Assembly (NCBI GenBank): GCA_963797235.1
Contig: CAWCOX010000006.1
Coordinates: 191,668 to 255,667 of the forward strand
Source: an uncultured delta proteobacterium
GTDB lineage: Bacteria > Desulfobacterota > Desulfobaccia > Desulfobaccales > 0-14-0-80-60-11
Length of the DNA: 64,000 nucleotides
Direction of reading: 5' to 3'
The notes under the pieces are model-generated. The model ran no database searches, was not told where the DNA came from, and saw nothing but the letters and a program-made list of their open reading frames with translations. Shown here in pieces: positions 3,157 to 36,176 of this stretch. The translations under genes were made by a program, and so were the position numbers. Numbering within the stretch: the stretch's first letter is position 1; every line of letters begins with the position of its first letter.

Positions 3157-3838
3157 ATGAGCCAAATCGCCCAAAATTTAGAGGAAGTGCGTCGCCGCAT
3201 GGCCGCCGCGGCCCGGCGGGCCGGCCGGGACCCGGCTGGGGTGCGCCTGGTGGCGGTGAGCAAGACGGTGCCGGTGGAGCTGATCCGCCAGGCCGTGGCC
3301 GCGGGCCAGCGCCTCTTCGGCGAAAATTATTTGCAGGAGGCCCGGGGCAAGATCGAGGCCCTGGGGGAGGCGGCGAGCTGGCATTTTATCGGCCATCTGC
3401 AAAGCAACAAGGCCAAGGCTGCGGTGGGGTTGTTCGAGCTGATCCACGGGGTGGACCGCCTGAAGCTGGCCGAGGCGCTGAATTCTGCCGCGGCCTCCAA
3501 AGGAACCTTACAAAAAATCCTGCATGCAGGTAAACCTGGCGGGCGAGGCCTCGAAATCCGGGACCAGCCTGGAGGCAGCCGCCGAGTTGTGGCGTGAAAT
3601 CAGCCAGTTGCCGCACCTGCGGCTGGTGGGCCTGATGACCATGCCGCCCTTGCTCTCGCCCGAGGCGGTGCGCCCTTATTTCCGGGCCCTGCGGGAGCTG
3701 CGGGAGCGGCTGCAAGACCTGGGCGGGACCCCCTTGCCGGAGTTGTCCATGGGCATGTCCGGCGACTTTGAGGTGGCCATCGAGGCAGGCGCCACCCTGG
3801 TGCGGGTGGGCACCGCCATCTTCGGCAGCCGGCTTTGA
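3157..3838 (+). pseudogene. yggS: YggS-family pyridoxal-phosphate homeostasis protein, apparent frameshift
   Basis: ORFs 3157-3597 and 3524-3838 together give a full YggS (VAVSKT...HFIGHLQSNK then MQVNLAGEASKSG...MGMSGDF). The frames switch near the A6 run at 3512-3517. Confidence 0.8.
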
Positions 3839-5918: not shown

Positions 5919-6934
5919 CCAGGTTGGCGCCGCAGGCCCCCCTGGCCCTGGCCCTCGGGCGGCTGCTGGCCCCGGCCGGGGCCCCTCCCCTGACCGGCGA
6001 GGTGGCCCGGGAAACGCTGCCGTCTTCCCGAGAGGTCTGCCGCTTCACCTTCCGCGGCAACGGCGCCGCCGTGGTGGGCAAATTTTATGGCGCCTATCCT
6101 GCCGCCACGCCGGCGGACCAGGGCCTGGTCCAGGAATATGACCACTATCTCCGGGCTGCGGAACTGGGACTGACCGAGGGCTTAGCCAGGATTCCGCGGC
6201 TTCTGGGCCGCCGGCCGGACCTCCGCCTGGGTCTGCTGCTGGAGGCCGTTCCCGGGCCGGACCTGGATCGCCTCATGCGCGGCGCCATCGAGCCAGGTAA
6301 GCTGGCCGACCTCGGTCGGGGCCTGGAAAGCCTGGCTGAACTCCTGGCCTTTTTTCACTCCCGCCCCTTGCCGGAGACCGCGGTGTCGGGCCGGGAAGCC
6401 TTGAGTTACCTGGACAAACTATTATTGCAACTGCGGCGGCAGGGCCTGCTTTCTCCTGAAGACGAGGGTGACCTGATCTCGGAGAGGGCCGCCTGGGAAG
6501 TCAGGCTGGCGCAATTTCCCGACCGGCAGGTGCTGGTGCACGGCGACGCCACCCCCACCAATTTTCTCTTCCCCGACCACGACGGGCGGGGAGGCCCGCC
6601 CCACGGGAGGGCGGTGGCCCTGGACCTGGAGCGCCTGCGGGCGGCGGACCGCCTCTGGGACCTCTCCTGGGTGGCCGGCGAACTCAAGCACGCCTGGGCC
6701 TGGCGCACCGGCCATGCGGCCGCGGCTGAACCCGCCATCGGCCATTTTTTGGCGGCTTATCTGGAGTCGCAGCCCCATAACCCGGACCTGGCGCAGCGCC
6801 TCTATCTCCTCAATCCCTTTTACATGGCCCTGGCGGAGCTGCGCATCGCCCGGAATGGTTATCTCGCCTGGGAGTACCGCCGCTGGCTGGTGGCCGAGGC
6901 TACAAGATGTTTGACTTACGGCAGGCGGTTATAA
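5915..6934 (+). CDS. aminoglycoside-phosphotransferase-like kinase family protein
   Basis: HGDATPTNFL (HGDxxxxN catalytic loop) and DLERL. GTG 5915 overlaps the activase stop (GTGA). Everything upstream of this GTG in the track ORF overlaps the activase. Confidence 0.65.
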   Translation: MTRLAPQAPLALALGRLLAPAGAPPLTGEVARETLPSSREVCRFTFRGNGAAVVGKFYGAYPAATPADQGLVQEYDHYLRAAELGLTEGLARIPRLLGRRPDLRLGLLLEAVPGPDLDRLMRGAIEPGKLADLGRGLESLAELLAFFHSRPLPETAVSGREALSYLDKLLLQLRRQGLLSPEDEGDLISERAAWEVRLAQFPDRQVLVHGDATPTNFLFPDHDGRGGPPHGRAVALDLERLRAADRLWDLSWVAGELKHAWAWRTGHAAAAEPAIGHFLAAYLESQPHNPDLAQRLYLLNPFYMALAELRIARNGYLAWEYRRWLVAEATRCLTYGRRL

Positions 6935-11721: not shown

Positions 11722-11788
11722 ATTATTGGAGAGTGCCGCGAGCCGCCTCCGACTCCCGCCTGGCCGGTGAGCGCGAGTCGGACGCGGC

Positions 11789-12721
11789 TCAAGTTTCTCC
11801 GGCCAGCCAGAGATAGAGGAACTGGGGGCCGGCGCTCTCCAGCTCCGGGACCATGGAGTAGATATTGGGGCGGTAAGTGCCGGGCCGGTGATAGCGAACG
11901 ATCCGGGCCCCGGAGATGCCGGCCAGGGCCTGGGCCTCCTTCAGGGCGTCGTCCAGGTAGCCGATCTGGTCGATCAATTTCAGGTCCCGGGCCTGGGGGG
12001 CGGTGAAGATGCGGCCGTCGGCCACCTGCCGGACCTCTTTGAGGCTCATCTTACGGCCCTGGGCCACCACGTTGATGAAGTCCCGGTAAAATTCCTCGAT
12101 GATCTGCTGCATCATCTCTTTTTCTTGGGGGGTGGCGGCCCGGAAGGGCGACCAGAAATCCTTCCAGGCCCCGGTCTTCACTACGTCGGTATCCACCCCC
12201 ACCTTGTCCATTAGGCCCCGGAAGTTGAATTTCATGGCGATGACCCCGATGGAGCCGGTGATACAGGTGGGATAGGCCATGATGGTGTCGCCGGCCTGGG
12301 CCACGTAATAGCCCCCGGAGGCGGCCAGGCCCTCCAGGCAGACCACGATGGGCAGGTGGCGCTCGGCCTTGAAGCTCTGCAGTTCGTGGAGGATGACGTC
12401 CGCGGCGCTCACGGTGCCCCCCGGGGAATTGATCTTCAGGACCACCGCCTTGATGTGGTCGTCCTTGGCGGCCTTCTCCAGTTCCTCCTTCACCCGGCTG
12501 GGGGTGGTGACGCCCTTGAAGAGGCCCAGAAGGCGCTGGGGGCCACTTTCCACGACCATGCCGTGGATGTCCAGCAGCAGGACCTTGTCCCGGCCGTAGC
12601 CCGATACGGTCTTCTCCTTCAAGGGTTCGGCCTCTTCGAAGAGGGGGACTTTGACGGTGATGCAGCCGGCCAGCACCAGGAGAACTAGACTAATTATGGC
12701 CAGGATAATTTTGGGACGCAT
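11789..12721 (-). CDS. sppA: signal peptide peptidase SppA (36K type)
   Basis: N-terminal TM segment. NSPGGTVSA and GLAASGGYYVA serine-protease motifs. Confidence 0.85.
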   Translation of the reverse strand: MRPKIILAIISLVLLVLAGCITVKVPLFEEAEPLKEKTVSGYGRDKVLLLDIHGMVVESGPQRLLGLFKGVTTPSRVKEELEKAAKDDHIKAVVLKINSPGGTVSAADVILHELQSFKAERHLPIVVCLEGLAASGGYYVAQAGDTIMAYPTCITGSIGVIAMKFNFRGLMDKVGVDTDVVKTGAWKDFWSPFRAATPQEKEMMQQIIEEFYRDFINVVAQGRKMSLKEVRQVADGRIFTAPQARDLKLIDQIGYLDDALKEAQALAGISGARIVRYHRPGTYRPNIYSMVPELESAGPQFLYLWLAGET

Positions 12722-12751
12722 AAGCCGCCTTTCTGAACTGGGTTATTCTTG

Positions 12752-12778
12752 GTAGGGGCGGCTCGCGAGCCGCCCCAC
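12752..12778. repeat. REP-like hairpin, family R3
   Basis: GTAGGGGCGGCTCGCGAGCCGCCCCAC. The core is identical to 32528-32554. Confidence 0.85.
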
Positions 12779-13169
12779 AGCCGTAGCTTTATCTCCTTAT
12801 AGATGATGTGGCCCGCGGGTGCAATCCTTCATTTGACAGGGAGGGTGGGAAGACATTCTCAGGGCGCCTGCCGAGGTGGTCGGGCGGGCTGTCCCGGCCC
12901 ACCGGCACCGGTTTTGTGCACTTGTACAAGCCTTTTTGAAGCCCTAACCGATTTTAGTATTGGAGGGCTCCAGGGCGAAACGGCAAAGTTGGGTCCAGAA
13001 AGAAAAAAGCACTTGACACTTTTAAAATAGATGATAAACAATAATCGTTTCAGAACTATCACCTTATCAACCTCAATAATCTTCTTTAATTGAAAAGACG
13101 CAAGTCGCGTTAAGGGGGACGAGGTTATTGCGATAGGTGCTATCTGACACGGGAGGAGGCGATAATTGC

Positions 13170-13850: not shown

Positions 13851-16205
13851 ATGGCAGAGCAATCCTTGAGCGCCCTGGAGTTTCCGGGGCTCATCCGGGT
13901 CGTGCAGCAGTACGCCGTCGCGCCCCTGGGTCGGGATTATCTCAGCACCCTGGCGCCCCTCACCGATCTAAGCCTGATTCAGGCAAAATTTCAGCAAATT
14001 AAGGAATGGCAGGAACTGGAGAACCGGGAGGGCGCCTCGCCCCTGGACGATTTCTCCGACCTGGCGCCATGGCTCACCAAGGTGACGGTGCGGGGCAGCC
14101 TCCTGCCGGCCGAGGCCTTCAACGAGATCTTGCAGGTGCTGCGCCTGGCCGGCCACCTGAAGACTTATCTCAAGTCGAACGAATCCCTGACGCCGCAGTT
14201 ATCGGCCCTGAGCGGCGGCCTCAAGGACCTCTCCCGCCTCCAGGAAGCCATCCAGCAGTGCATCAGCCCGCACCATTTCATCCTGGACCAGGCGAGCCCG
14301 GGGCTGGCCGGGGTGCGCCGGGAACTGACCGAGACCCGGGAGCGGGTCAACCGCCAGATCAAGCAGGATTTTTTCCGGCCGGAATACCAGAACGCCCTGC
14401 AAAACCCCATCATCTCCCAGCGCCACGGGCGCTATGTCATCCCCATCAAGGCCGACCACCGGGGGGCGATCCCCGGCATCATCCACGATCAGTCCCAGAC
14501 CAAGGCCACCCTGTTCCTGGAGCCTCTGGCCATCGTGGAGCACAACAACGCCCTCAACCTGCTGCATAATCGGGAAAAGCGGGAAGAGGAACTGGTGCTG
14601 CGGCGCCTCACGGACCTGGTGCGCGATGCGCTCGAGGATATTCGCCAGACCCTGGCCACCCTGGCCGAGGCCGACGCCCTGCAGGCCAAGGTGCTCTTTG
14701 CCCGGGATTTCAAGGCCATAGAGCCCCTCTGGCGGAGCCGCGGCGGCCTGGATTTCAAGCAGGCCCGCCATCCCCTGCTGATTCAGCGCCACCGGGAGGA
14801 CCCCGGGGCGCCGGAAGTGGTGCCCATCGACCTGACGCTCACCCCGGAAAACCGCTGGCTGATCATCTCCGGGGCCAACGCCGGCGGCAAGACCGTGGCC
14901 CTGAAGACCCTGGGCCTGCTCACCCTCATGGCGCAGAGCGGCATCCCCATTCCGGTGGCCGAAGGCAGCGAGTTCTGCCCCTTCGACCGCGTCTTCGCCG
15001 ACATCGGCGACCCCCAGGATTTGCACCAGAGCCTGAGCACCTTTTCGGCCCACTTGAAAAAGGCCCTGGAAGTGCTTAATAGCCTGCCGGGGAGGGATCT
15101 CATCCTGCTGGATGAGCTGGGTACCGCCACCGATCCTACCGAGGGGGGCGCGCTGGCGTTAGCTCTGCTGCAAGTCTTCTATCAGAGGGGTGCTTACGGG
15201 GCGGCGACGACCCATATTCCCCTGTTGAAGGGGTTCGCCCAACGCACCGAAGGCTTCGAGAACGTGGCGGTGGTCTTCAATGAGGAGACCCGGCGGCCCA
15301 CCTATGGCCTGGCCTACGGGGTGGTGGGGGCCTCCAACGCCCTGAAGATCGCCCGGGAGTTGGGCTTGAGCGCCGAGATTCTGGCCCAGGCCGAGCGCTA
15401 TCTCGACCAGGACGAACTGCGGGCCTACCGGCTCTTGGGCGAAGTCGAGGCGGCCCAGCAGGAGGTGGCCCGGCGCGAGGCGGAGCTGGCGGCCCACACC
15501 CGGGAACTGGAGGCCAGGAACCGGGAGTTGGAGGCGCAGCAACGGGAACTGGAGACGGAGCGGCAGCGGCTGGTAACTGAAGTGAAGCGCCATGCCCTGG
15601 ACAGCATCAAAGAGGCGGAGGGGCAATTTAAGGAGATCGTCAAGCGGCTGCAAAGCGGCGGCGAGTCCTGGGGCAGGCTGCGCCAGGAGTTCTCCCGGCG
15701 CCAGGCCGACCTGCTCCAGGAACTGACCCCCGCCCCGAGCCTGACGCCGCCTCCGAGGCCGGTCTATACTCCCGGCCAGAAGGTCTTTTTGCCGGCGTTG
15801 GGGCTGACCGGCGAGATTCTTGCGCAAGATAGTAAGGATGGACGCTTGCAGGTACAGGTGCGCCAGGTGAAGATCCGCGTGCTGCCTGAAGAAGTGGCCC
15901 CGGTCGGGGAGAAGGGCCGGCCCAAAAAGGCCGCGGCGGCGCCGGCTTTGGTCTGCCTGCCGCCCCGGGAATTGGTGCAAAATCTGAACATCATCGGCCT
16001 CCGGGTGGACGAGGCCCTGCCCCTGGTGGACCGGCTCCTCGACCAGGCGGTGCTGAACGGCGCCGAACACGTGGACATCATCCACGGCGTGGGCACCGGC
16101 CGCCTCAAAAAGGCGGTCTGGGAACACCTGAAGCGCCACGGCGCGGTGAAGGAACTCCACGCCGACGCCAACCCCGGGGTGACCGTGGTGGATTTAAAGG
16201 ATTAG
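13851..16205 (+). CDS. mutS2: endonuclease MutS2
   Basis: Walker A GANAGGKT, DELGTATDP and a C-terminal Smr domain (DIIHGVGTGRLK). Confidence 0.9.
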   Translation: MAEQSLSALEFPGLIRVVQQYAVAPLGRDYLSTLAPLTDLSLIQAKFQQIKEWQELENREGASPLDDFSDLAPWLTKVTVRGSLLPAEAFNEILQVLRLAGHLKTYLKSNESLTPQLSALSGGLKDLSRLQEAIQQCISPHHFILDQASPGLAGVRRELTETRERVNRQIKQDFFRPEYQNALQNPIISQRHGRYVIPIKADHRGAIPGIIHDQSQTKATLFLEPLAIVEHNNALNLLHNREKREEELVLRRLTDLVRDALEDIRQTLATLAEADALQAKVLFARDFKAIEPLWRSRGGLDFKQARHPLLIQRHREDPGAPEVVPIDLTLTPENRWLIISGANAGGKTVALKTLGLLTLMAQSGIPIPVAEGSEFCPFDRVFADIGDPQDLHQSLSTFSAHLKKALEVLNSLPGRDLILLDELGTATDPTEGGALALALLQVFYQRGAYGAATTHIPLLKGFAQRTEGFENVAVVFNEETRRPTYGLAYGVVGASNALKIARELGLSAEILAQAERYLDQDELRAYRLLGEVEAAQQEVARREAELAAHTRELEARNRELEAQQRELETERQRLVTEVKRHALDSIKEAEGQFKEIVKRLQSGGESWGRLRQEFSRRQADLLQELTPAPSLTPPPRPVYTPGQKVFLPALGLTGEILAQDSKDGRLQVQVRQVKIRVLPEEVAPVGEKGRPKKAAAAPALVCLPPRELVQNLNIIGLRVDEALPLVDRLLDQAVLNGAEHVDIIHGVGTGRLKKAVWEHLKRHGAVKELHADANPGVTVVDLKD

Positions 16206-16235
16206 AGGGGAAAAGGGAAGTAAGAAGGAAAAGAG
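16206..16235. repeat. purine-tract short repeat (GGGGAAAA-like units)
   Basis: GAGGGGAAAA GGGAAGTAA GAAGGAAAA GAG, directly after the mutS2 stop. Confidence 0.6.
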
Positions 16236-16255
16236 CACAGGCTGGAAGCCTGCGC
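16235..16255. repeat. REP-like hairpin, family R2
   Basis: GCACAGGCTGGAAGCCTGCGC. Confidence 0.7.
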
Positions 16256-16288
16256 TACCAAAAGCCGACAGAGGAATAAGTTAACCGA

Positions 16289-16325
16289 AACTGACAACTG
16301 ACCACTGACAACTAGGCAACTGACC
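16289..16325. repeat. tandem heptamer array x5 abutting the dnaG ATG
   Basis: AACTGAC AACTGAC CACTGAC AACTAGG CAACTGACC, then ATG 16326. Confidence 0.85.
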
Positions 16326-18089
16326 ATGGCGTTTATCCCGGAAGACAAGCTCCTGGAGATCAAGGACGCGGCCCGCATCGAAGAGGTGGTGGGGCAGTAC
16401 GTCCAATTGGTCCAAAAGGGCAAGAATCTTTTGGGACTCTGCCCCTTCCACGCCGACACCAGCCCTTCTTTCACGGTATCCCCGGAGAAGGGCATTTTTT
16501 ATTGTTTCGGCTGCGGCGCCGGCGGCAACGTCATCTCCTTTCTGATGCAGCACCAGCGCCTGAGCTTCCCGGAGGCGGCCCAGGAGCTGGCCCGGCGCTA
16601 CGGCATCCCGCTCTCCTTCCAGGAACTGGGGCCGGAGGGCTCGCAGCAGACCCGCAAGCGCACCCTGGCCTATGAGATCAACCAGGCGGCGGCCAGTTTT
16701 TACGAGGCCACTTTGAGCAGCGCCGCGGGCAAGCCCGGCCGGGACTACCTGGCCAGGCGCGGCCTGACGCCGGAGGTCATCAAGGCCTTTCACCTGGGCT
16801 ATGCCGTGGAGGAATGGGACGCCCTGCGCCGCCATCTGCAGGCCCGCGGCCTCTCTTTAGAGGCGGCCCGGGACGCCGGCCTGCTGATGCCCCGGACCAG
16901 CGGCGGCTTCTACGACCGTTTCCGGGACCGCATCATCTTCCCCATCTTCGACCGGCAAAGCCGGGTGATCGCCTTCGGCGGCCGGATTATCGGCGTTGGT
17001 GAGCCCAAGTACCTCAACTCCCCGGAGTCCCAGCTCTATTCCAAGGGCCGCAACCTCTACGGCCAGCCCCAGGCCGCCGACGCCCTGCGCCTCACCAAAG
17101 TGGCCCTGGTGGTGGAGGGCTATCTCGACCTCATCTCTTTGCAGACCCAGGGCATCGCCAACGTCCTGGCGACGCTGGGCACGGCGCTCACCCGGGAGCA
17201 GGTGCGCCTGCTCAAAAGCCTGGCCGATAAAGTGGTCCTGGTCTACGACGGCGACGCCGCCGGCCTCAAGGCCATGCAGCGGGCCTTTCCGCTCTTTGCC
17301 CAGGAGAGTCTGCCGGTCAGGGCCCTGGCCCTGCCGGCCGGGCAGGACCCGGACGACTACGCCCGCAGCCAGGGGGTGGAGATCTTTAAGAACGCCTGGG
17401 ACTCGGCCCAGCCCTGGTTCACCTTCCTGCTGGAAGGGCTGGTTGCCACCCATGGTCTGGAGGTAGAAGGCCGGGTGCGCATCCTGGAAGAGCTGCGGCC
17501 TTATTTCCAGGCCATCACCGAACCGGTGGAGCAGGATTTATGGCGCAAGGCCGCGGCCCAACGCCTGGGCGTGGACGAAGGCGTCCTGCGCCAGAGCCTG
17601 GCCTCCTGCGCCCCCATCGCCGCCAGCCGGATCAGGCGCACCGCCGGGGTGACCGTCAGTATGGAAAAGGCCCTGCTGCGCTGGGTCTTGTGTCACCCCC
17701 AGGCAATGGAACTGGAGGAATTGGAACACTGGGCCCTGGAGTTCGAAACCGGGGATTTAAAGGAACTCCTGGCCCTCATTATCGAGAATTGCCGGCAACA
17801 CGGCAGACTGGATCACGGCTTGCTGGTGCAGCAGGTGGAGAGGGAGAGCTTGCGCCAGCAAATCTGCGCCTTAACCCTCACAGAGGAGGACACGAGCGGA
17901 ACCGCAACAGATCTCCAGGCCGAAGACTTGCGTCGAATTCTAAAGGTTCGTCAGCTTAAGAAGGCCCGGGTTCAACTGAAAGAAAGAATGCATCATATTG
18001 GCACTACGCAAGTCAAGGAAGACCTGACAGACCTGCAAGTCCAATGGCAGGAGATCGACCGCCAACTTAAAGAACTTTCGGCTCATTAG
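16326..18089 (+). CDS. dnaG: DNA primase
   Basis: Zinc ribbon [30 protein letters not shown] and Toprim EGYLD. Confidence 0.95.
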
Positions 18090-22802: not shown

Positions 22803-23170
22803 CGCGGAGCAGGCCAGATGATCGCCGGATGGGCGTCATGCCGCCGGAGGAAAGTCCGAGCTCCACAGGGCAGGGTGCTGGGTAATCCCCAGCGGGGGCG
22901 ACCCCAGGGAAAGTGCCACAGAGACCAGACCGCCGTGGTACGTCCACGGTAAGGGTGAAAAGGTGAGGTAAGAGCTCACCAGCGGCGGGGGCGACCCCGT
23001 CGGCTAGGAAAACCCCACCCGGAGCAAGACCAAATAGGGGAGCGCTTGAGGGTGGCCCGCCTGAAGCTCCCGGGTAGGTTGCTGGAGGCCCCGGGCAACC
23101 GGGGTCCTAGAGGAATGATCATCACCGGGGCAACCCGGGACAGAACTCGGCTTACGGCCTGCTCCGCGTT
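22803..23170 (+). ncRNA. rnpB: RNase P RNA, bacterial type A
   Basis: GGAGGAAAGTCCGAGCTCCACAGGGCAGGGTGCTGGGTAATCCCCAG..AGTGCCACAGAGA... and the 3' ACAGAACTCGGCTTAC (P4 pairing CCGAG/CTCGG). Terminal P1 pairing GGAGCAGGCC/GGCCTGCTCC. Confidence 0.9.
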
Positions 23171-23179
23171 TTCTTTGAG

Positions 23180-23216
23180 ACCACCGGCCACTTCAGGTGG
23201 CGGGTGGGTTTTTTTT
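23180..23216 (+). terminator. rho-independent terminator of rnpB
   Basis: Hairpin CCACCGGCCAC-TTCA-GGTGGCGGGTGG followed by T8. Confidence 0.8.
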
Positions 23217-23273
23217 AAAATAAATATTTTTCCACCAACAGAATCACATACATGCAACTTGTGGAGATGCAGC

Positions 23274-24164
23274 GTGCAGCTCAAAGGTGACACTCAAGCG
23301 CTATCCCAATTTCTCGATGATGGGATAACACGTGGTGATGCCTTGGACCTATTGCCACGCCTTCCCCAAGGCAGCATCGACCTTTTCTTCACGAGTCCCC
23401 CGTATGCCGATGCGCGAGCCTATAGTCGGATACACCCAGACCATTATGTTGAATGGTTCCTCCCGTTTGCCAAAGCGATGTTTGATGTTACGTGTGCAAG
23501 TGGTAGCCTCATCCTTAATATCAAGAATCGCGTAGCAAAACAGGGTCAACTAAAGGGTCAGAGGCACCCATACGTATATGAGTTGGTTCTTGCCATCCAA
23601 CGGCTGGGTTGGCGTTGGATTGAGACATACATATGGGCGAAACCCAATGCAGTTCCAGGTAGGTTTGGTCCAAGGACTAAAGATAGTTTTGAGTATGTTT
23701 ATCATTTTGCCCGTGGCGTCAGACCATATTTTGATCTGGATGCAGTTAGAGTTCCATATAAGGCAGACTGCGCAGAGATCGCCAGGCGAAAATTAGACAG
23801 ACTTGGCAGGCGAAATACCGAGGCCGGCTTTGGCCGTGATCGAACGAAGACCTATTTACTAGGTGGAGCGGACCCAGGAAACGTGGTGTCTGTTGCACAG
23901 ACGTACAACCAGTATCGAGGTGTAGCACACACAGCAGCAATGCCGGAGGGACTAGCCGAGTTCTTTATTAAAATCGCCAGCCCTATGGGCGGAATAGTAA
24001 TAGACCCGTTTGCAGGCGGGGGGACTACAATTGTTATAGCTCGTCGTCTTGGACGTAAGGCGGCGGGATTTGAAATTCACGAGCAATTCGTTGACGAGTC
24101 CCGTCGACGTATCGCCGAAAATTCTGCTAATGATATTCCCGGATATCTATTCAAGGTCGGATAA
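23274..24164 (+). CDS. beta-class DNA amino-methyltransferase (N4-cytosine or N6-adenine; SPPY favours m4C)
   Basis: Motif IV FTSPPY precedes motif I DPFAGGGTT (beta permutation). GTG 23274 lies 8 nt after GGAG. The track ORF 5' extension (23046-23273) overlaps rnpB and its terminator and is discounted. Confidence 0.85.
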   Translation: MQLKGDTQALSQFLDDGITRGDALDLLPRLPQGSIDLFFTSPPYADARAYSRIHPDHYVEWFLPFAKAMFDVTCASGSLILNIKNRVAKQGQLKGQRHPYVYELVLAIQRLGWRWIETYIWAKPNAVPGRFGPRTKDSFEYVYHFARGVRPYFDLDAVRVPYKADCAEIARRKLDRLGRRNTEAGFGRDRTKTYLLGGADPGNVVSVAQTYNQYRGVAHTAAMPEGLAEFFIKIASPMGGIVIDPFAGGGTTIVIARRLGRKAAGFEIHEQFVDESRRRIAENSANDIPGYLFKVG

Positions 24165-24169
24165 AATCA

Positions 24170-25276
24170 GTGTCGAATATCCAAGACACAATCAAAAAGA
24201 TTGCCGAAGCGCACAGTTGGGATCAGCGAATCGCTCAGATTCGATTAATTCCTATGAATCATGGGACAAACGAGCATACAAGCATTTACGCTGAAATTGC
24301 GCGATTGCTGTATGTGCCGCACCTTGCCCCTGATTTCGCGTACATACATGAAGACCATTTTTATGGACAAGAATATTTCGAGCAGGTATACGCCGATGCT
24401 TATGTGGCAACGAAAGGATTCACTAGAGTTGTGGAAGACGAGCTATTTTCGGTTCTCGAGAATAATCCCAGAACACTGCTGGTATTTCGTACCATCACGG
24501 GCCTCAGAAAAGCAGAATTCGCACACGCAACCATCATGGCTGGGGAGCCAATTGGCCTAAGCCCCTTGAGTTCGAATAAGGTGGACTCAATGGAGCGAGA
24601 CGGGACGCCAGCCACACATGAACAAGCCAGAGTCGCGGCCAAGACAATTTCCCAAATCATTGATGGTTCTCTTTTTGGTGTTCCACCCGGCGACCTTGTC
24701 AGCAAGCAAGCAAAACCGGACACCGAAAATGGTTGGCCAAGTGTACGCCGCTTTGCTTCCGCTGGTATTCCTTTCTCATTGTTTTTGCACCAACGTCACT
24801 ATGGGGGCTCGTTCCGGCAGATATTGGATGCCACATCAAAAAAACGCGGCGATCTGATTGAGGATGCAGTAGACGCGTTATTCAGACAGAATGGTATCCC
24901 ATACATTCGCACAGGCAGTCACAACCAGGGTGAAATCGCTAATCGGTTTGAGGTCAGGGTTACGCCGGCACCAGACTTTGTGGTTTTTGATCATTCAGAA
25001 ACACTTCGAGCGATCCTGGAATGCAAGACAATAAATGACGGAGGCACGGCTCGCGACAAGGCACCTCGCTTTACGAAACTGCGGGGAGAGTCGAATCGAC
25101 TGGGTGGAATCCCGCTGATCGCTATTTTAGGTGGCATCGGTTGGGCCCGAGTCAACGATGCCTTGGGACCCGTGGTTCGAGACACGGATGGTCGAGTTTT
25201 TACTTTATCGACCCTTTCGACAATGCTCGAAGTGGCACCCTTCCCATCACTGATTGGGCTTGAGCCGACCACATAA
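24170..25276 (+). CDS. putative type II restriction endonuclease (PD-(D/E)XK candidate)
   Basis: Starts 5 nt after the methyltransferase stop. C-terminal APDFVVFD-x10-LECK fits PD...ExK. The N-terminal ~250 aa have no motif I recognise. Same low-G+C composition as the methyltransferase. Confidence 0.55.
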   Translation: MSNIQDTIKKIAEAHSWDQRIAQIRLIPMNHGTNEHTSIYAEIARLLYVPHLAPDFAYIHEDHFYGQEYFEQVYADAYVATKGFTRVVEDELFSVLENNPRTLLVFRTITGLRKAEFAHATIMAGEPIGLSPLSSNKVDSMERDGTPATHEQARVAAKTISQIIDGSLFGVPPGDLVSKQAKPDTENGWPSVRRFASAGIPFSLFLHQRHYGGSFRQILDATSKKRGDLIEDAVDALFRQNGIPYIRTGSHNQGEIANRFEVRVTPAPDFVVFDHSETLRAILECKTINDGGTARDKAPRFTKLRGESNRLGGIPLIAILGGIGWARVNDALGPVVRDTDGRVFTLSTLSTMLEVAPFPSLIGLEPTT

Positions 25277-25299
25277 GAGGCAACGCTAAGGTAAAATTT

Positions 25300-26281
25300 A
25301 TGACCCCACAGGTCGCCCCTTTGAACACTAACTTGCCAGCCCCCTATATCTCCGTCATCATTCCCGTTTATAACGAAGAAGAGAACCTTCGGGAGTTGGG
25401 GGAGCGGCTGATGCAGACGCTTACCGGCGATGGACCGCCCCTTCGAAATCATCCTGGTGGACGACGGCTCCGGCGACCGCTCCTGGGAGATCCTCACCGA
25501 ACTGCACGCCAGGTATCCGGAAAACCTCCGGGCCTTGCAATTTAACCGCAATTTCGGCCAGCACCAGGCCATCTTTGCCGGCTTCCAGGCGGCCCGGGGG
25601 CAGGTGATGATCACCCTGGACGCCGACCTGCAAAACCCGCCGGAGGAGATTCCCCGCCTGGTGGCCAAGATCGAGGAGGGCTACGACACCGTGGGCGGCT
25701 GGCGGGAGAACCGCCGGGACTCGCTGTTCCGGAAACTCCCCTCCCAACTGATGAACGTGGTGATGTCCCGGGTCACCGGGGTCAAGCTGCGGGACTACGG
25801 CTGCATGTTGCGGGCCTACCGCCGGGAGGTGATTGACAGCATCAACCAGTGCCATGAATCCTCCAGTTTCATCCCGGCCCTGGCCAATCTCTTTTCCCGC
25901 CGGGTGGCGGAGATTCCCGTGGGCCACGCCGAGCGCGAGCGGGGCCAGTCCAAGTACGGCCTGATCAAGCTGCTCCGCCTCAACTTCGACCTGGTGACCG
26001 GCTTCTCCAACCTGCCCATCCACGCCGTGGGCTTCACCGGGGTGGCCATCGCCTTTTTGGGGGTGCTCTTCGGGTTCCTCCTGATCCTCCGCCGGCTGTT
26101 CGTGGGCCCGGAGGTGGAGGGGGTCTTCACCCTGTTCGCCATCCTGTTCGTCTTCGTGGGCCTCAACACCCTGGGCCTGGCCCTGATCGGCGAATACGTC
26201 GGCCGCATCTACCGGGAGGTGCGCGGCCGGCCGCGCTATGTCATTAGGCAGACCCTGGGGCCGGAACCGAAACAGCCATAA
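25300..26281 (+). pseudogene. arnC: undecaprenyl-phosphate 4-deoxy-4-formamido-L-arabinose transferase (ArnC-like GT2), apparent frameshift
   Basis: ISVIIPVYNEEENL in the first frame. MDRPFEIILVDDGSGD...LDADLQNPPEEI and 2 C-terminal TM segments in the second frame. The slip is near 25425-25431. Confidence 0.8.
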
Positions 26282-34280: not shown

Positions 34281-35759
34281 ATGAACTCCAAGGCAGCGCA
34301 ACATATCCATCTCCTGGGCATCTGCGGCACCGGCATGGCGGCGCTGGCCGGGATTCTTCAGGAACAGGGCTACCGGGTCAGCGGCTCCGACGAACACGCC
34401 TACCCGCCCATGAGCACTTTTCTGGAGGGTCTGGGCATCCGGGTGCAAAACGGTTACGCCGCGGCCAACCTGAATCCCCGGCCGGACCTGGCCGTGGTGG
34501 GCAACGTCATCCGCCGGGACAATCCCGAGGCCCAGGCCCTGTTGGCCGGCGACCTCCCCCGCCTGTCGATGCCGGAAGCGCTGAACCGCTTCCTGGTGGG
34601 CGAGCGCCGGAGCCTGGTGGTGGCCGGCACCCACGGCAAGACCACCACCACGGCGCTCCTCAGTTGGCTGCTCTACGCCCTCGGGCTCGACCCCGGCTTC
34701 ATGGTGGGCGGCATCGCCCGGAATTTCCAGGCCAACTACCGGGTGGGCCGCGGCCCCTACGTGGCCCTGGAGGGCGACGAATACGACACCGCCTTTTTCG
34801 ACAAGCGCCCCAAGTTCGTGCACTTCCGGCCCCGGGTGGCGATCCTCACCTCCATCGAATTCGACCACGCCGACATTTATACCGACCTGGACCACGTCAT
34901 CCGGGCCTTCGAGGCTTTCCTTGCGACGGTCGCTCCGGACGGCCGGGTCCTGGCCTGGGGGGATGCGCCCCTGGTGCGCCAGGTCTGCGGGCGCCGCGGG
35001 GCGCCGGTCTCGTTTTACGGCCAGGGCCCCGATTGCCAGTGGCAGGCCACGGATCTAGCCCCGGCCGCCGGCGGCATGCAGTTCAGCGTCCGGCGGGACG
35101 GCAAGCCGTGGGGCGAGTTTTTCCTGCCGATGATCGGCCGGCATAATGTCTGGAACGCCCTGGCCGCCCTGGCGGCCCTGGCGGAGGTGGGGGCCGAACC
35201 CGGGCCGCTGCAAGAGGCCCTGGCCGGCTTTAAGGGGATTCACAAGCGCCAGGAGGTGGCCGGGGAATTTCAGGGGGTGCTGGTCCTGCAGGATTTCGCC
35301 CACCATCCCACCGCGGTGGCCGTGACCCTGGCGGCGGTGCGCCAGGGCTACCCGGACCGCCGCCTGGTGGCGGTCTTCGAGCCCCGCACCAACACCTCCA
35401 GGCGCCGCATCTTCCAGGAGCACTACGCCAAGGCCTTCCAGGACGCCGACCTCATCTTGGTGCGGGAGCCGCCGGACCTGTGGAAGGTGGAGCCGGAGGA
35501 ACAGTTTTCCTCGCAGCAACTGGTGGCGGACCTGGAGCGCCAGGGCAAAACCGCCGCCTACTTTCCCGATACCGATCAGCTCCTGGCAGGATTGCTGCCG
35601 CGGCTCCAGCCCGGCGACCTGGTGCTGGTCATGTCCAACGGCGACTTCGACCACCTGGTGCCGCGCCTGTGCGAGGCGAAAGAAGATGCGGGGAGAAATA
35701 TAAATTATAAGGAAATGAAAATTCTGTGTCTTGGTTCTTATGTGAGATTTATAATCTAA
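34281..35759 (+). CDS. mpl: UDP-N-acetylmuramate:L-alanyl-gamma-D-glutamyl-meso-diaminopimelate ligase
   Basis: LGICGTGMAALA and GTHGKTTTT, Mur-ligase architecture. The last ~25 codons (KEDAGRNINYKEMKILCLGSYVRFII) are encoded by the AT-rich tract. Confidence 0.85.
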   Translation: MNSKAAQHIHLLGICGTGMAALAGILQEQGYRVSGSDEHAYPPMSTFLEGLGIRVQNGYAAANLNPRPDLAVVGNVIRRDNPEAQALLAGDLPRLSMPEALNRFLVGERRSLVVAGTHGKTTTTALLSWLLYALGLDPGFMVGGIARNFQANYRVGRGPYVALEGDEYDTAFFDKRPKFVHFRPRVAILTSIEFDHADIYTDLDHVIRAFEAFLATVAPDGRVLAWGDAPLVRQVCGRRGAPVSFYGQGPDCQWQATDLAPAAGGMQFSVRRDGKPWGEFFLPMIGRHNVWNALAALAALAEVGAEPGPLQEALAGFKGIHKRQEVAGEFQGVLVLQDFAHHPTAVAVTLAAVRQGYPDRRLVAVFEPRTNTSRRRIFQEHYAKAFQDADLILVREPPDLWKVEPEEQFSSQQLVADLERQGKTAAYFPDTDQLLAGLLPRLQPGDLVLVMSNGDFDHLVPRLCEAKEDAGRNINYKEMKILCLGSYVRFII

Positions 35760-36176
35760 AAGCAGGTAATAATTCGTTTAAGACTCTGAATTGAGCCTTT
35801 TACAAGACCTTTTTCTTTAAGAACGCTTTTGTAAAATGAGAACATGTTTGTGATGGCTACACTTGATGAATGTTAATTTCAGAAAAGTTAGTTTGATAGT
35901 AATCAATACCACTTATTGCGATATTATTAAGAAACTGGTTTTAGGCTTCTTTATTAAGTTAAGGTGATAAGATTAATAAGATAATTACAATAAGATATTT
36001 TATTGGTTTAATAAATTTTTTTCACACCATGAACAATCACCCCAAAGATATTATATTAAAAACTTTGCTCAACTATTCCATTAGATAGCACAACACGCAA
36101 TTTTAACGATTACTAAAGCTGTGCTTGAAAAGGGTAGTCCACACTGGGGAGCACCACATGTGCCTCACCCGGGAGA

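Follow-up and report, generated by a model that had tools for sequence, protein, structure and literature searches.

A low-G+C predicted Type II restriction-modification cassette between rnpB and an arn-type operon in Desulfobaccales

Background

Among described systems, those closest to the locus reported here are two-gene Type II restriction-modification (R-M) systems built around M.PvuII-type N4-cytosine methyltransferases (MTases; solved structure 1boo). The single methylase of such a system has about 300 aa and carries its elements in the order motif IV (SPP[Y/F]), TRD and motif I (FxGxG); the methyltransferase of our locus (M) has the same size and the same order, the two being distant relatives only. 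To our knowledge, the protein encoded directly downstream of M (R; 368 aa, with a helix-turn-helix (HTH) and a PD-ExK signature) belongs to a family apart from the nucleases that pair with characterised M.PvuII-type methylases. The SPPY form of motif IV has been described as a hallmark of N4-methylcytosine (m4C) chemistry (PMC10855626, PMC10406627).

For R, a Foldseek search with the full predicted model returned a sole significant match, BstEII in complex with DNA (9ibq, released 2026; E 7e-4, probability 1.00, 339 aligned columns), and both are PD-(D/E)XK Type II enzymes, R by prediction. The match is weak, at 12% identity with TM-scores of 0.39/0.48 and an rmsd of 9.4 Å between proteins of 286 aa (BstEII) and 368 aa (R), and BstEII is neither matched at the sequence level by the R family profile nor retrieved by the N-terminal 218 residues of R alone. 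Weak matches also connect the catalytic region of the R family (residues ~223-340) with the families DpnII (PF04556), PDDEXK_11 (PF20472), EcoRII-C and RE_BanI. Residues ~89-165 bear a local likeness to HTH proteins of the Xre/cI type—including the R-M controller C.Esp1396I—and to sigma-70 region 4, with the difference that the HTH of R forms part of a larger all-alpha domain joined to the nuclease, whereas regulators of the C.Esp1396I type are free-standing.

As to its genomic setting, the locus resembles the defence hot spots found between core genes, which likewise hold bare cassettes of atypical G+C, patchily distributed at one site and without mobility genes, but here the cassettes are anchored at the rnpB terminator and in spacers within an arn-type operon. 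Oliveira et al. 2014 (PMC4176335) reported that a complete R-M system mostly moves on its own or as part of a small element; decay in situ to a solitary methylase is uncommon in that study (PMC4176335) and is seen in the cassettes described below. Here we describe an island next to rnpB that is very probably a self-contained Type II R-M cassette of ~2.07 kb, consisting of a leader, M and R, and exchanged via homology in its flanks.

Results

A low-G+C island between rnpB and an arn-type operon

Within the window—the whole 64,000-nt stretch of DNA that we analysed—the 2073-nt stretch of lowest G+C is 23218-25290, at 0.493 compared with 0.623 for the rest (z = -4.8) and 0.549 for the next-lowest stretch of that length elsewhere, which bears out the initial annotation of this DNA, where a low-G+C island had been placed between the rnpB terminator and the arn operon. 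G+C at third codon positions (GC3) is 0.43 in M and 0.48 in R, against 0.79-0.91 in five flanking genes. The low-G+C stretch beside rnpB is a real island: it spans 23217-25299, starting at the base after the T8 of the rnpB terminator, with a right edge 23 nt short of arnC. Two ORFs with coding support, and no others, lie inside it, 5 nt apart, and they agree in both coordinates and motifs with the beta-class methyltransferase and the 368-aa protein 5 nt downstream that had been annotated. The locus is laid out as follows.

22806-23169, plus strand: rnpB, bacterial RNase P RNA of class A, the conserved left flank (Rfam RF00010, 310 bits, E 1.3e-100, full length)
23182-23216, plus strand: intrinsic terminator of rnpB, a G+C-rich hairpin followed by T8 (from sequence, a terminator scan and conservation in relatives with an empty site)
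23217-23273, plus strand: cassette leader, with a candidate promoter and the ribosome-binding site of M
23274-24164, plus strand: gene for M, a 296-aa beta-class DNA methyltransferase, probably N4-cytosine specific (GTG start; Shine-Dalgarno sequence GGAGA at 23263-23267)
24170-25276, plus strand: gene for R, a 368-aa putative Type II restriction endonuclease, starting 5 nt after the M stop codon
25277-25299, plus strand: what is left of the spacer (23 nt), including the arnC ribosome-binding site, the right island edge (from sequence and from the junctions of occupied versus empty loci)
25300-26281, plus strand: arnC-like GT2 gene, the conserved right flank (Pfam GT2 on both pieces; NCBIfam PRK10714, E 6e-107, on the 3' part)

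In a comparison of about 50 Desulfobaccales loci the left flank, rnpB, shows 88-99% identity, and the arn-type genes downstream of the island encode an ArnC-like GT2, an ArnA-type formyltransferase and a UDP-4-keto-pentose synthase. The arnC gene of the window is split by a +1-nt insertion (frameshift) near 25428, reading ACCGGCGATGG as compared with ACCGG-AATGG in an alignment with the relatives L007, L081 and L012.

A stretch of ~40-55 nt immediately 5' of M (...ACAGAATCACATACATGCAACTTGTGGAGATGCAGC-GTG) is conserved among cassette copies, both at rnpB and at other genomic sites (L074, L076, L077 and L078), and the leader of several copies contains TTGACC-N17-TACAAG. A simple sigma-70 scan found no promoter in the window copy of the leader. 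From the leader sequences taken together, we infer a putative promoter of the cassette's own.

Searches for ORFs and repeats agree with the initial observation that integrase, transposase and flanking direct repeats are absent: the island holds no integrase or transposase ORF, and no direct or inverted repeats or att sites bracket it. An integrase-mediated island at an RNA gene was considered as a candidate and rejected, there being neither an integrase or recombinase ORF nor flanking direct repeats (att). At the junctions of occupied versus empty loci the spacer is replaced, not duplicated, and a cassette free of mobility genes would have taken the place of the native rnpB-arnC spacer.

Patchy occupancy and exchange of the cassette among Desulfobaccales

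Comparison of the rnpB-arnC junction in relatives, which the initial annotation had suggested as a check, revealed that most sites are unoccupied. Among 49 related Desulfobaccales species, 40 are empty, with a spacer of 200-400 nt as the sole sequence between rnpB and arnC, while M and R together are present in 5, M alone in 2 and other cargo in 1; in the remaining species M lies at a contig end. The closest relative of the window (L007; 93% identical in the zn protein and 99% in rnpB) has an empty site. The same two low-G+C genes are found in the occupied relatives. Host-like composition of these genes at this locus, which the initial annotation had named as counting against the island, was seen nowhere: the cassettes have a G+C of about 0.49-0.55 and their hosts one of 0.57-0.63, without amelioration. 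Occupied loci also have the site, the orientation and a conserved leader in common, and the window and L001 are collinear through the island at 80% nt identity.

The bare two-gene low-G+C cassette is additionally found at other loci, namely within rml genes (L076), between dnaN and gyrB (L078) and after lon (L079). Other spacers of the same operon hold other R-M cassettes in relatives, with every piece of cargo in the orientation of the operon. L001-L003 and L012 carry a PLD + DpnI_C nuclease in addition to the cassette.

Between the window and the locus L073, R is 92-95% identical at the nt level (dS 0.275) and M 83-84% identical (dS 0.81), as compared with 60-77% in the flanking zn and rnh genes (zn dS 1.08) and 70-76% at the 5' end of arnC. 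This mosaic with one distant lineage shows an apparent lateral exchange of R at rnpB-arnC. Pairwise identity is also correlated with host identity (Spearman 0.60 for R and 0.44 for M), and part of the identity pattern would fit vertical descent with losses.

One ancient insertion, in the ancestor of the Desulfobaccales, followed by vertical descent with many losses and no lateral exchange, would be compatible with this partial tracking of host identity, with the uniform site, orientation and leader of occupied loci, and with the collinearity of the window and L001. We nevertheless consider it unlikely, given that ~40 independent losses would be needed, that the closest relative is empty, that the cassettes are unameliorated in their hosts, that near-identical cassettes lie at unrelated loci, and that R of the window and of L073 is so much more similar than the sequences on either side. 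Insertion of the island is best explained, from the one clear mosaic and the patchy distribution, by homologous recombination in the conserved flanking sequences, and recombination of this kind—through rnpB, arnC and the conserved M gene—would be the route by which Desulfobaccales lineages have acquired, exchanged and lost the cassette.

M is a beta-class methyltransferase, most likely specific for N4-cytosine

Two motifs define the class of M.

23394-23405, plus strand: SPPY (residues 41-44) of motif IV, TSPPY (residues 40-44)
24003-24029, plus strand: motif I, DPFAGGGTT (residues 244-252; FAGGG 246-250)

Since motif IV lies N-terminal to motif I, M has the beta order. It matches Pfam N6_N4_Mtase (E 3.5e-36, 125.7 bits against a cut-off of 26.7) and PADLOC MTase_II (E 5e-46); its PADLOC matches are to MTase models only, with Type II MTase models ranked at the top and two weaker orphan-MTase matches, among the best 25 of 68. 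The best solved relative is the N4-cytosine MTase M.PvuII (1boo, E 6e-25, full length), whereas the named adenine MTases CcrM, RsrI and MboIIA reach E 1e-14 at best, and a Geodermatophilus obscurus protein 77% identical to M bears an NCBI name specifying it as cytosine-N4-specific. In L127 and L155, R is paired with an MTase of a different lineage (30% identity), which is also of the SPPY type. SPPY is a strong, though not absolute, sign of N4-cytosine over N6-adenine chemistry, and to judge from its motifs and relatives M is most likely N4-cytosine specific.

The same R-M cassette with an M specific for N6-adenine is, in our view, very unlikely. The Pfam N6_N4_Mtase family does span both chemistries, and the next-best NCBIfam and PDB matches are adenine MTases (the three named above), but motif IV reads SPPY rather than D/NPPY, the full-length match to M.PvuII is stronger than those to the adenine enzymes, and the independent MTase lineage paired with R is SPPY-type as well. 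A weak and indirect further point is that the PLD + DpnI_C nuclease co-residing with the cassette in L001-L003 and L012 would, by homology to DpnI, be expected to target adenine-methylated DNA.

R is a predicted PD-(D/E)XK nuclease of a widespread family

Two regions can be distinguished in R.

24434-24568, plus strand: HTH (residues ~89-133) within the all-alpha N-terminal region (residues 1-~220)
24860-25027, plus strand: predicted catalytic core, with E231 (24860-24862), P268-D269 (24971-24976), E284 (25019-25021) and K286 (25025-25027)

Across 35 sequences, down to 27% identity, three residues (E231, P268, E284) never vary, and another two (D269, K286) are conserved in at least 90%. The PD...ExK motif noted in the initial annotation is invariant or nearly so across the R family; the spacing between APDFVVFD and LECK is 8 residues and not the 10 originally given. 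The AF2 model of R (pLDDT 92) contains an alpha-beta-beta-beta-alpha-beta core, formed by helix 223-240 (with E231), strands 245-247, 270-273 (after D269) and 279-287 (with E284 and K286), helix 299-310 and strand 316-321. Its BFVD fold matches are PD-(D/E)XK nucleases at probability 1.0, and the significant or probable fold matches of R as a whole are to nucleases only; we accordingly predict with confidence that the C-terminal part of R is a PD-(D/E)XK domain.

At the level of sequence families, R reached the threshold for no family in Pfam, NCBIfam or PADLOC, and it matched no non-nuclease family, in keeping with the nuclease role first proposed for the 368-aa protein. Sub-threshold Pfam matches across the R family all fall to restriction-enzyme PD-(D/E)XK families or to HTH_31 (which matches 2 members). 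On R itself, DpnII scores 17.0 bits against a gathering threshold of 23 and PDDEXK_11 15.2 against 23.7, and any one Pfam restriction-enzyme family matches 1-6 of the 35 R family members, at E 2.6e-4 or weaker. Since all of these lie below gathering thresholds, R falls outside DpnII, PDDEXK_11, EcoRII-C and RE_BanI. The R family comprises 1631 proteins (451 clusters at 50% identity) from several phyla, all of which, distant members included, are called "hypothetical protein" or left unnamed in the sources examined. A search of a phage collection, like those of NCBIfam and PADLOC, gave no match to R, and a plasmid collection yielded one unnamed homologue, on plasmid pMspBDGP8A of Microbacterium sp. 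BDGP8.

The N-terminal region, in which the initial annotation had recognised no motif, includes an HTH-like part; residues 1-218, searched alone, gave no significant fold match. Among PDB sequences, the sole match of the R family profile is the HTH of sigma-70 region 4 (E 0.003), the single R sequence matching none, and comparison of the region with HTH structures gives TM-scores of 0.53-0.56 (target-normalised) at E > 4, which is not significant. Part of the N-terminal region may accordingly be described as a putative Xre/sigma-r4-like HTH, and this helical region probably serves in sequence recognition and/or dimerisation.

M and R behave as a Type II module

M lies directly upstream of R on the same strand, at a spacing of 5-60 nt, in 71/71 testable loci from several phyla, one of them on the Microbacterium plasmid. 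No third conserved gene was found beside the pair in relatives, and no ATPase/helicase or specificity subunit lies beside M and R in the island. With dN/dS of 0.05-0.12 for M and 0.09-0.13 for R, both genes are, by this measure, under purifying selection, their function apparently retained.

R is intact in 92 of 96 loci. Elsewhere it has been deleted with M kept (L039 and L059) or carries nonsense codons next to an intact M (L072/L073, L084 and L125), and these are the sole forms of decay seen; no locus that allows a judgement has R without M, but some have M without functional R. Loss or inactivation confined to R is what toxicity of R in the absence of M would be expected to produce. The observations support treating M and R as a Type II R-M module, and the reading favoured from the outset, a type II R-M system, gains from the placement of M in Type II MTase models, the PD-(D/E)XK domain predicted for R and the adjacency in 71/71 loci.

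That the locus is not a classical R-M system—R being a methylation-dependent or other effector, an HTH regulator or a repair nuclease, or M being an orphan or regulatory methylase—is highly improbable, for although R lacks curated family membership, carries an Xre/C-protein-like HTH and has an N-terminal domain without a known fold match, its unbroken same-strand linkage to an SPPY methylase, the absence of a third conserved gene, the placement by PADLOC of M chiefly in Type II MTase models and of R in no system, and the one-sided loss of R all speak against it, as does the self-destructive nature of a modification-dependent nuclease beside its own modifying enzyme. Other methylase-linked defence (BREX, DISARM or Type I/III R-M) was rejected, as PADLOC matches M, among the best 25 of 68 matches, to MTase models only and finds nothing for R, and the neighbours of M are rnpB and arn genes, with no BREX, DISARM or Type I/III markers.

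Palindrome statistics in carriers and non-carriers

We also searched for palindromes avoided in cassette carriers. CGATCG occurs once in the window compared with 13 occurrences expected, but relatives without the island are equally depleted (34 vs. 113), so this word is not informative on the R-M site. In pooled carrier flanks (421 kb), GAGCTC, AACGTT and AGTACT looked carrier-specific; GAGCTC was rejected as a recognition site on account of a taxonomic confound, its value within Desulfobaccales being 0.83 in carriers and 0.86 in non-carriers. The 6-mers with an AGCT core are rare inside cassettes, but they too were set aside, since the cassette copies are non-independent and the same words are rare in controls. 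Carriers showed no avoidance of GGTNACC, the BstEII site, and palindrome-avoidance tests overall returned nothing specific to carriers.

Discussion

In the Type II R-M cassette that we propose, M would most likely place an N4-methyl group on cytosine in a short recognition sequence, and R would act as a Mg2+-dependent PD-(D/E)XK endonuclease, employing E231, D269, E284 and K286, that cuts the recognition sequence when it is unmethylated. Since R would cut unmethylated sites, the pair would restrict incoming DNA and also penalise the loss of M, in the manner of a toxin-antitoxin system.

A more far-reaching reading, which we offer tentatively and hold to be possible rather than probable, is that R founds an uncharacterised endonuclease family, with an HTH-containing helical N-terminal domain that has no solved relative, a new site and invariable protection by m4C, and that the rnpB terminator and the arn spacers form a dedicated capture site at which promoter-bearing R-M cassettes are exchanged purely by flank homology.

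Current concepts are left unchanged by the cassette, which would be an ordinary kind of bacterial defence or selfish element. Our analysis assigns a predicted function to the widespread R family, which reaches across several phyla and onto a plasmid and could yield a new Type II enzyme, m4C-protected systems being the least studied class. The locus also provides a natural example of R-M cassettes that move without mobility genes, with a breakpoint pattern inside the cassette and a putative route of homologous recombination through conserved flanking DNA, and it documents the in situ decay of an R-M pair to a solitary methylase. For the Desulfobaccales themselves, it marks out the rnpB-arn operon as a local restriction-system hot spot.

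Composition and gene content of the island

Immediately after the rnpB terminator, the window drops to a G+C content of 0.493 (from the base after the T8 run to 25290), vs. 0.623 in the remaining window, making this island the lowest-G+C 2-kb stretch in the 64 kb (z = -4.8; next lowest elsewhere 0.549). It holds two co-oriented genes, M and R, set among the following features:

22806-23169, rnpB (Rfam RF00010, 310 bits)
T8 end at 23216, G+C-rich hairpin and T8 run after rnpB (sequence, terminator scan)
23274-24164, M, beta-class DNA methyltransferase of 296 aa; GTG start with GGAGA ahead of it; TSPPY at residues 40-44 and DPFAGGGTT at residues 244-252
24170-25276, R, putative nuclease of 368 aa, starting 5 nt past the M stop
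Downstream, arn-type genes by family matches: ArnC-like GT2, formyltransferase PRK06988 and UDP-4-keto-pentose synthase PRK11908

Third-codon-position G+C is 0.43 in M and 0.48 in R, vs. 0.79-0.91 in five flanking genes, and the arnC ATG (25300) follows the R stop after a mere 23 nt, arnC ribosome-binding site included. Neither an integrase nor a transposase ORF lies within the island, and we found no direct or inverted repeats bracketing it, on which grounds an integrase-type island was rejected. ORF, composition and repeat searches thus bear out the initial annotation, which had described a composition drop, two genes, their motifs and no mobility gene, with one correction: in R, APDFVVFD and LECK stand 8 residues apart rather than 10.

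Two further observations concern the surrounding sequence. The arnC gene (25300-26281) is split into two frames by one extra base near 25428 (window ACCGGCGATGG; ACCGG-[A/G/C]ATGG in comparison loci L007, L081 and L012), reflecting either a true frameshift adjoining the island or an assembly error. Separately, positions 35500-36100 form a short intergenic stretch that is very rich in A+T (G+C 0.32-0.42, no long ORF), preceded by a gene that appears Mur-ligase-like when the sequence is judged by eye.

M is very probably an N4-cytosine methylase

M scores 125.7 bits against Pfam N6_N4_Mtase (cut-off 26.7) and also hits the Type II MTase models of PADLOC (E down to 5e-46), with motif IV preceding motif I in the beta permutation. 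It carries SPPY as motif IV, a sequence described as characteristic of N4-cytosine methylases, vs. DPPY in CcrM and other adenine enzymes (PMC10855626, PMC10406627). The best solved relative is the N4-cytosine methylase M.PvuII (1boo, E 6e-25, whole-length alignment), with named adenine methylases much weaker (CcrM 1.5e-14, RsrI 3.5e-11, MboIIA 6e-8); intermediate PDB matches (8urk and 9c3u, ~4e-17; 2zie, 9e-14) bear no label beyond "methyltransferase" or "putative modification methylase". Homologues at 77-80% identity occur in Actinobacteria and Acidobacteria, such as one in Geodermatophilus obscurus that NCBI names cytosine-N4-specific. Judged by motif and homology, M is very probably an m4C methylase, an M.PvuII-like member of the beta-class N4/N6 family.

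Palindrome avoidance tests for the recognition sequence were uninformative or taxonomically confounded. CGATCG is strongly under-represented in the window and in comparison loci L007-L067, with or without the island (34 observed vs. 113 expected in non-carriers), and CTAG and CGCG are also low across the clade, which suggests another widespread restriction pressure or a mutational bias.

R belongs to a widespread family with a predicted restriction-nuclease fold

No NCBIfam or PADLOC model matches R, and Pfam gives only sub-threshold DpnII and PDDEXK_11 matches at residues 223-340. The R family comprises 1631 proteins in a 90% clustered database (451 clusters at 50% identity), whose named members, including distant ones looked up separately, are all "hypothetical protein". 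Across an alignment of 35 members (lowest identity 27%), D184, T185, G188, L206, R209, E231, P268, E284, G292, T293, R300, G324 and G341 are invariant, with D269 and K286 at least 90% conserved. A Pfam scan of these 35 yielded scattered sub-threshold matches to PDDEXK_11 (6), DpnII (4), EcoRII-C (2), RE_BanI (1) and HTH_31 (2).

An AlphaFold2 model built from this alignment is confident (mean pLDDT 92.2), with residues 1-~220 all-alpha and ~223-321 folding as alpha-beta-beta-beta-alpha-beta. The first helix carries E231, the second strand begins at D269 and the third holds E284-x-K286, so that the modeled active site has the canonical PD-(D/E)XK layout. Foldseek returned one significant PDB match, the DNA-bound Type II enzyme BstEII (9ibq, E 7e-4, prob 1.0); any structural kinship of R with BstEII is remote at best (modest TM-scores of 0.39/0.48, 12% identity). 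All weaker PDB fold matches are PD-(D/E)XK nucleases, as are the only matches in a viral structure library. The family profile additionally matches sigma-70 region 4 at residues ~91-133 (E 0.003). A separate model of the N-terminal 218 residues (pLDDT 88.5) retrieves nothing significant from the PDB, showing only local, non-significant likeness to Xre/cI repressors and to C.Esp1396I, an R-M controller protein. Together, the fold and profile results predict a restriction-type nuclease domain in the C-terminal half, and in the N-terminal half a helix-turn-helix embedded in a helical domain for which PDB fold search gives no known relative. R is accordingly a predicted PD-(D/E)XK enzyme, and it falls below the threshold of each curated family searched; its cleavage activity and the role of its N-terminal domain are inferred.

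The cassette replaces a native spacer in a minority of relatives

Scanning the upstream zinc-ribbon protein (zn) over one genome per species gave 64 loci, mostly Desulfobaccales, with a conserved gene order of zn - RNase H-like (rnh) - rnpB - arnC - formyltransferase - epimerase. The rnpB-arnC interval was readable at 49 of these, where 40 have a bare 200-400 nt spacer, among them L007, the window's nearest relative (zn 93%, rnpB 99% identical); five carry M+R, two M alone, one ends after M, and one (L034) holds a different cassette. This junction comparison, which the initial annotation had proposed, revealed that the native spacer is replaced, not interrupted. In occupied relatives the cassette stays low in G+C (0.49-0.50; GC3 0.43-0.47 vs. 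host GC3 0.76-0.85) rather than host-like, so the observation that the initial annotation had named as refuting an island was not made.

In two occupied loci, L031 (~11745-11824) and L039 (~11748-11826), the rnpB terminator lacks its 3' half and T-run, with the cassette leader immediately next, so the left junction differs between lineages. REP-like palindromes, CCCCCTTT(N)CAAAGGGGG then GGGGGATTT, are present in empty spacers (L007 ~3330-3420, L009 ~5930-6000, L040 ~11830-11950); the window, with the cassette in place of the spacer, lacks them.

M and R are linked, and R alone decays

In 71/71 loci with enough upstream sequence, R is immediately preceded by a same-strand M homologue; these loci comprise metagenomic and viral contigs plus one Microbacterium plasmid, in which M and R abut end to end beside a recombinase and a Shedu gene; Desulfobaccales genome loci have the same arrangement. 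In L127 (2974-5086), L128 and L155 (2926-5050), an R homologue of 53-64% identity partners a beta-class methylase just 30-32% identical to M that retains SPPY, which by sequence is a replacement of the partner with its chemistry type kept.

Purifying selection acts on M and R alike (dN/dS 0.05-0.12 for M, 0.09-0.13 for R), and R is intact in 92/96 loci. Every form of decay found is a loss of R with M intact:

L039 ~12707-12874, clean deletion of R
L059 ~3458-3702, deletion of R leaving its last ~20 codons
L072:89-1189 and L073:4001-5101, codon 245 changed from TAC to a TAA stop, ahead of the catalytic core
L084:4001-5098, two nonsense codons in R
L125:4001-5107, one nonsense codon in R

Such loci illustrate in situ decay toward a solitary methylase, as predicted for a toxic nuclease restrained by its methylase.

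Exchange of the cassette

The same low-G+C cassette also occurs as a bare two-gene insert elsewhere, such as in rml genes (L076), between dnaN and gyrB (L078) and after lon (L079). Copies at these unrelated sites keep a ~40-55 nt conserved leader that may contain a promoter, and versions in other phyla have host-like G+C. Pairwise identities are only partly congruent with those of the hosts (Spearman 0.44 for M, 0.60 for R).

Nucleotide identity and dS between the window and L073
zn/rnh: 60-77%; dS 1.08 (zn)
M: 83-84%; dS 0.81
R (24225-25124): 93-95%; dS 0.275
arnC 5' end: 70-76%; dS 0.44 (GT2 HSP, from near codon 44)

With R far closer than its flanks, this comparison is, at sequence level, decisive for a recent exchange of the R segment between distant lineages at the rnpB-arnC locus, with apparent breakpoints that fall within or close to the conserved M gene and the beginning of arnC. 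As mobility genes and repeats are lacking, the best-supported route would be homologous recombination through the conserved flanks. Oliveira et al. 2014 (PMC4176335) report that the transfer of complete R-M systems is mostly autonomous or by way of small elements.

Other cargo in the rnpB-arn operon

Other spacers of this operon in other species carry different low-G+C cargo, co-oriented with the operon in all cases examined:

L034:11900-13310, rnpB-arnC spacer, D12 (Dam-like) methylase and 173-aa protein
L045:6689-8244, arnC-formyltransferase spacer, N6_N4 methylase and BglII-family endonuclease
L064:12930-14506, N6_N4 methylase and 236-aa protein; 15493-16561, next spacer, PDDEXK_4 nuclease
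L027:8885-9625, operon spacer, Methyltransf_24 protein
L002:7205-8065, L003:8174-9034, L009:7076-7939, L012:14904-15764 and L013:5456-6316, between arnC and formyltransferase, PLD + DpnI_C nuclease gene

The last of these (286-287 aa, G+C 0.31-0.32), whose DpnI_C domain is a methyl-DNA-binding winged helix, co-resides with the M+R cassette in L002, L003 and L012 and is absent from the window, where the arnC-formyltransferase gap is 39 nt.

Collectively, every defining feature that can be examined in silico (adjacent M and R, linkage, motifs and fold) agrees with the type II R-M system originally proposed, and it is highly likely that the cassette works as a classical one; another methylase-linked defence system was rejected on the PADLOC matches and neighbouring genes. 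The M+R island is a real but ordinary feature, to which an unannotated, widespread nuclease family and a clear picture of probable flank-mediated exchange and in situ decay add modest interest, and its sequence context marks the rnpB-arn operon of Desulfobaccales as an apparent local R-M hot spot.
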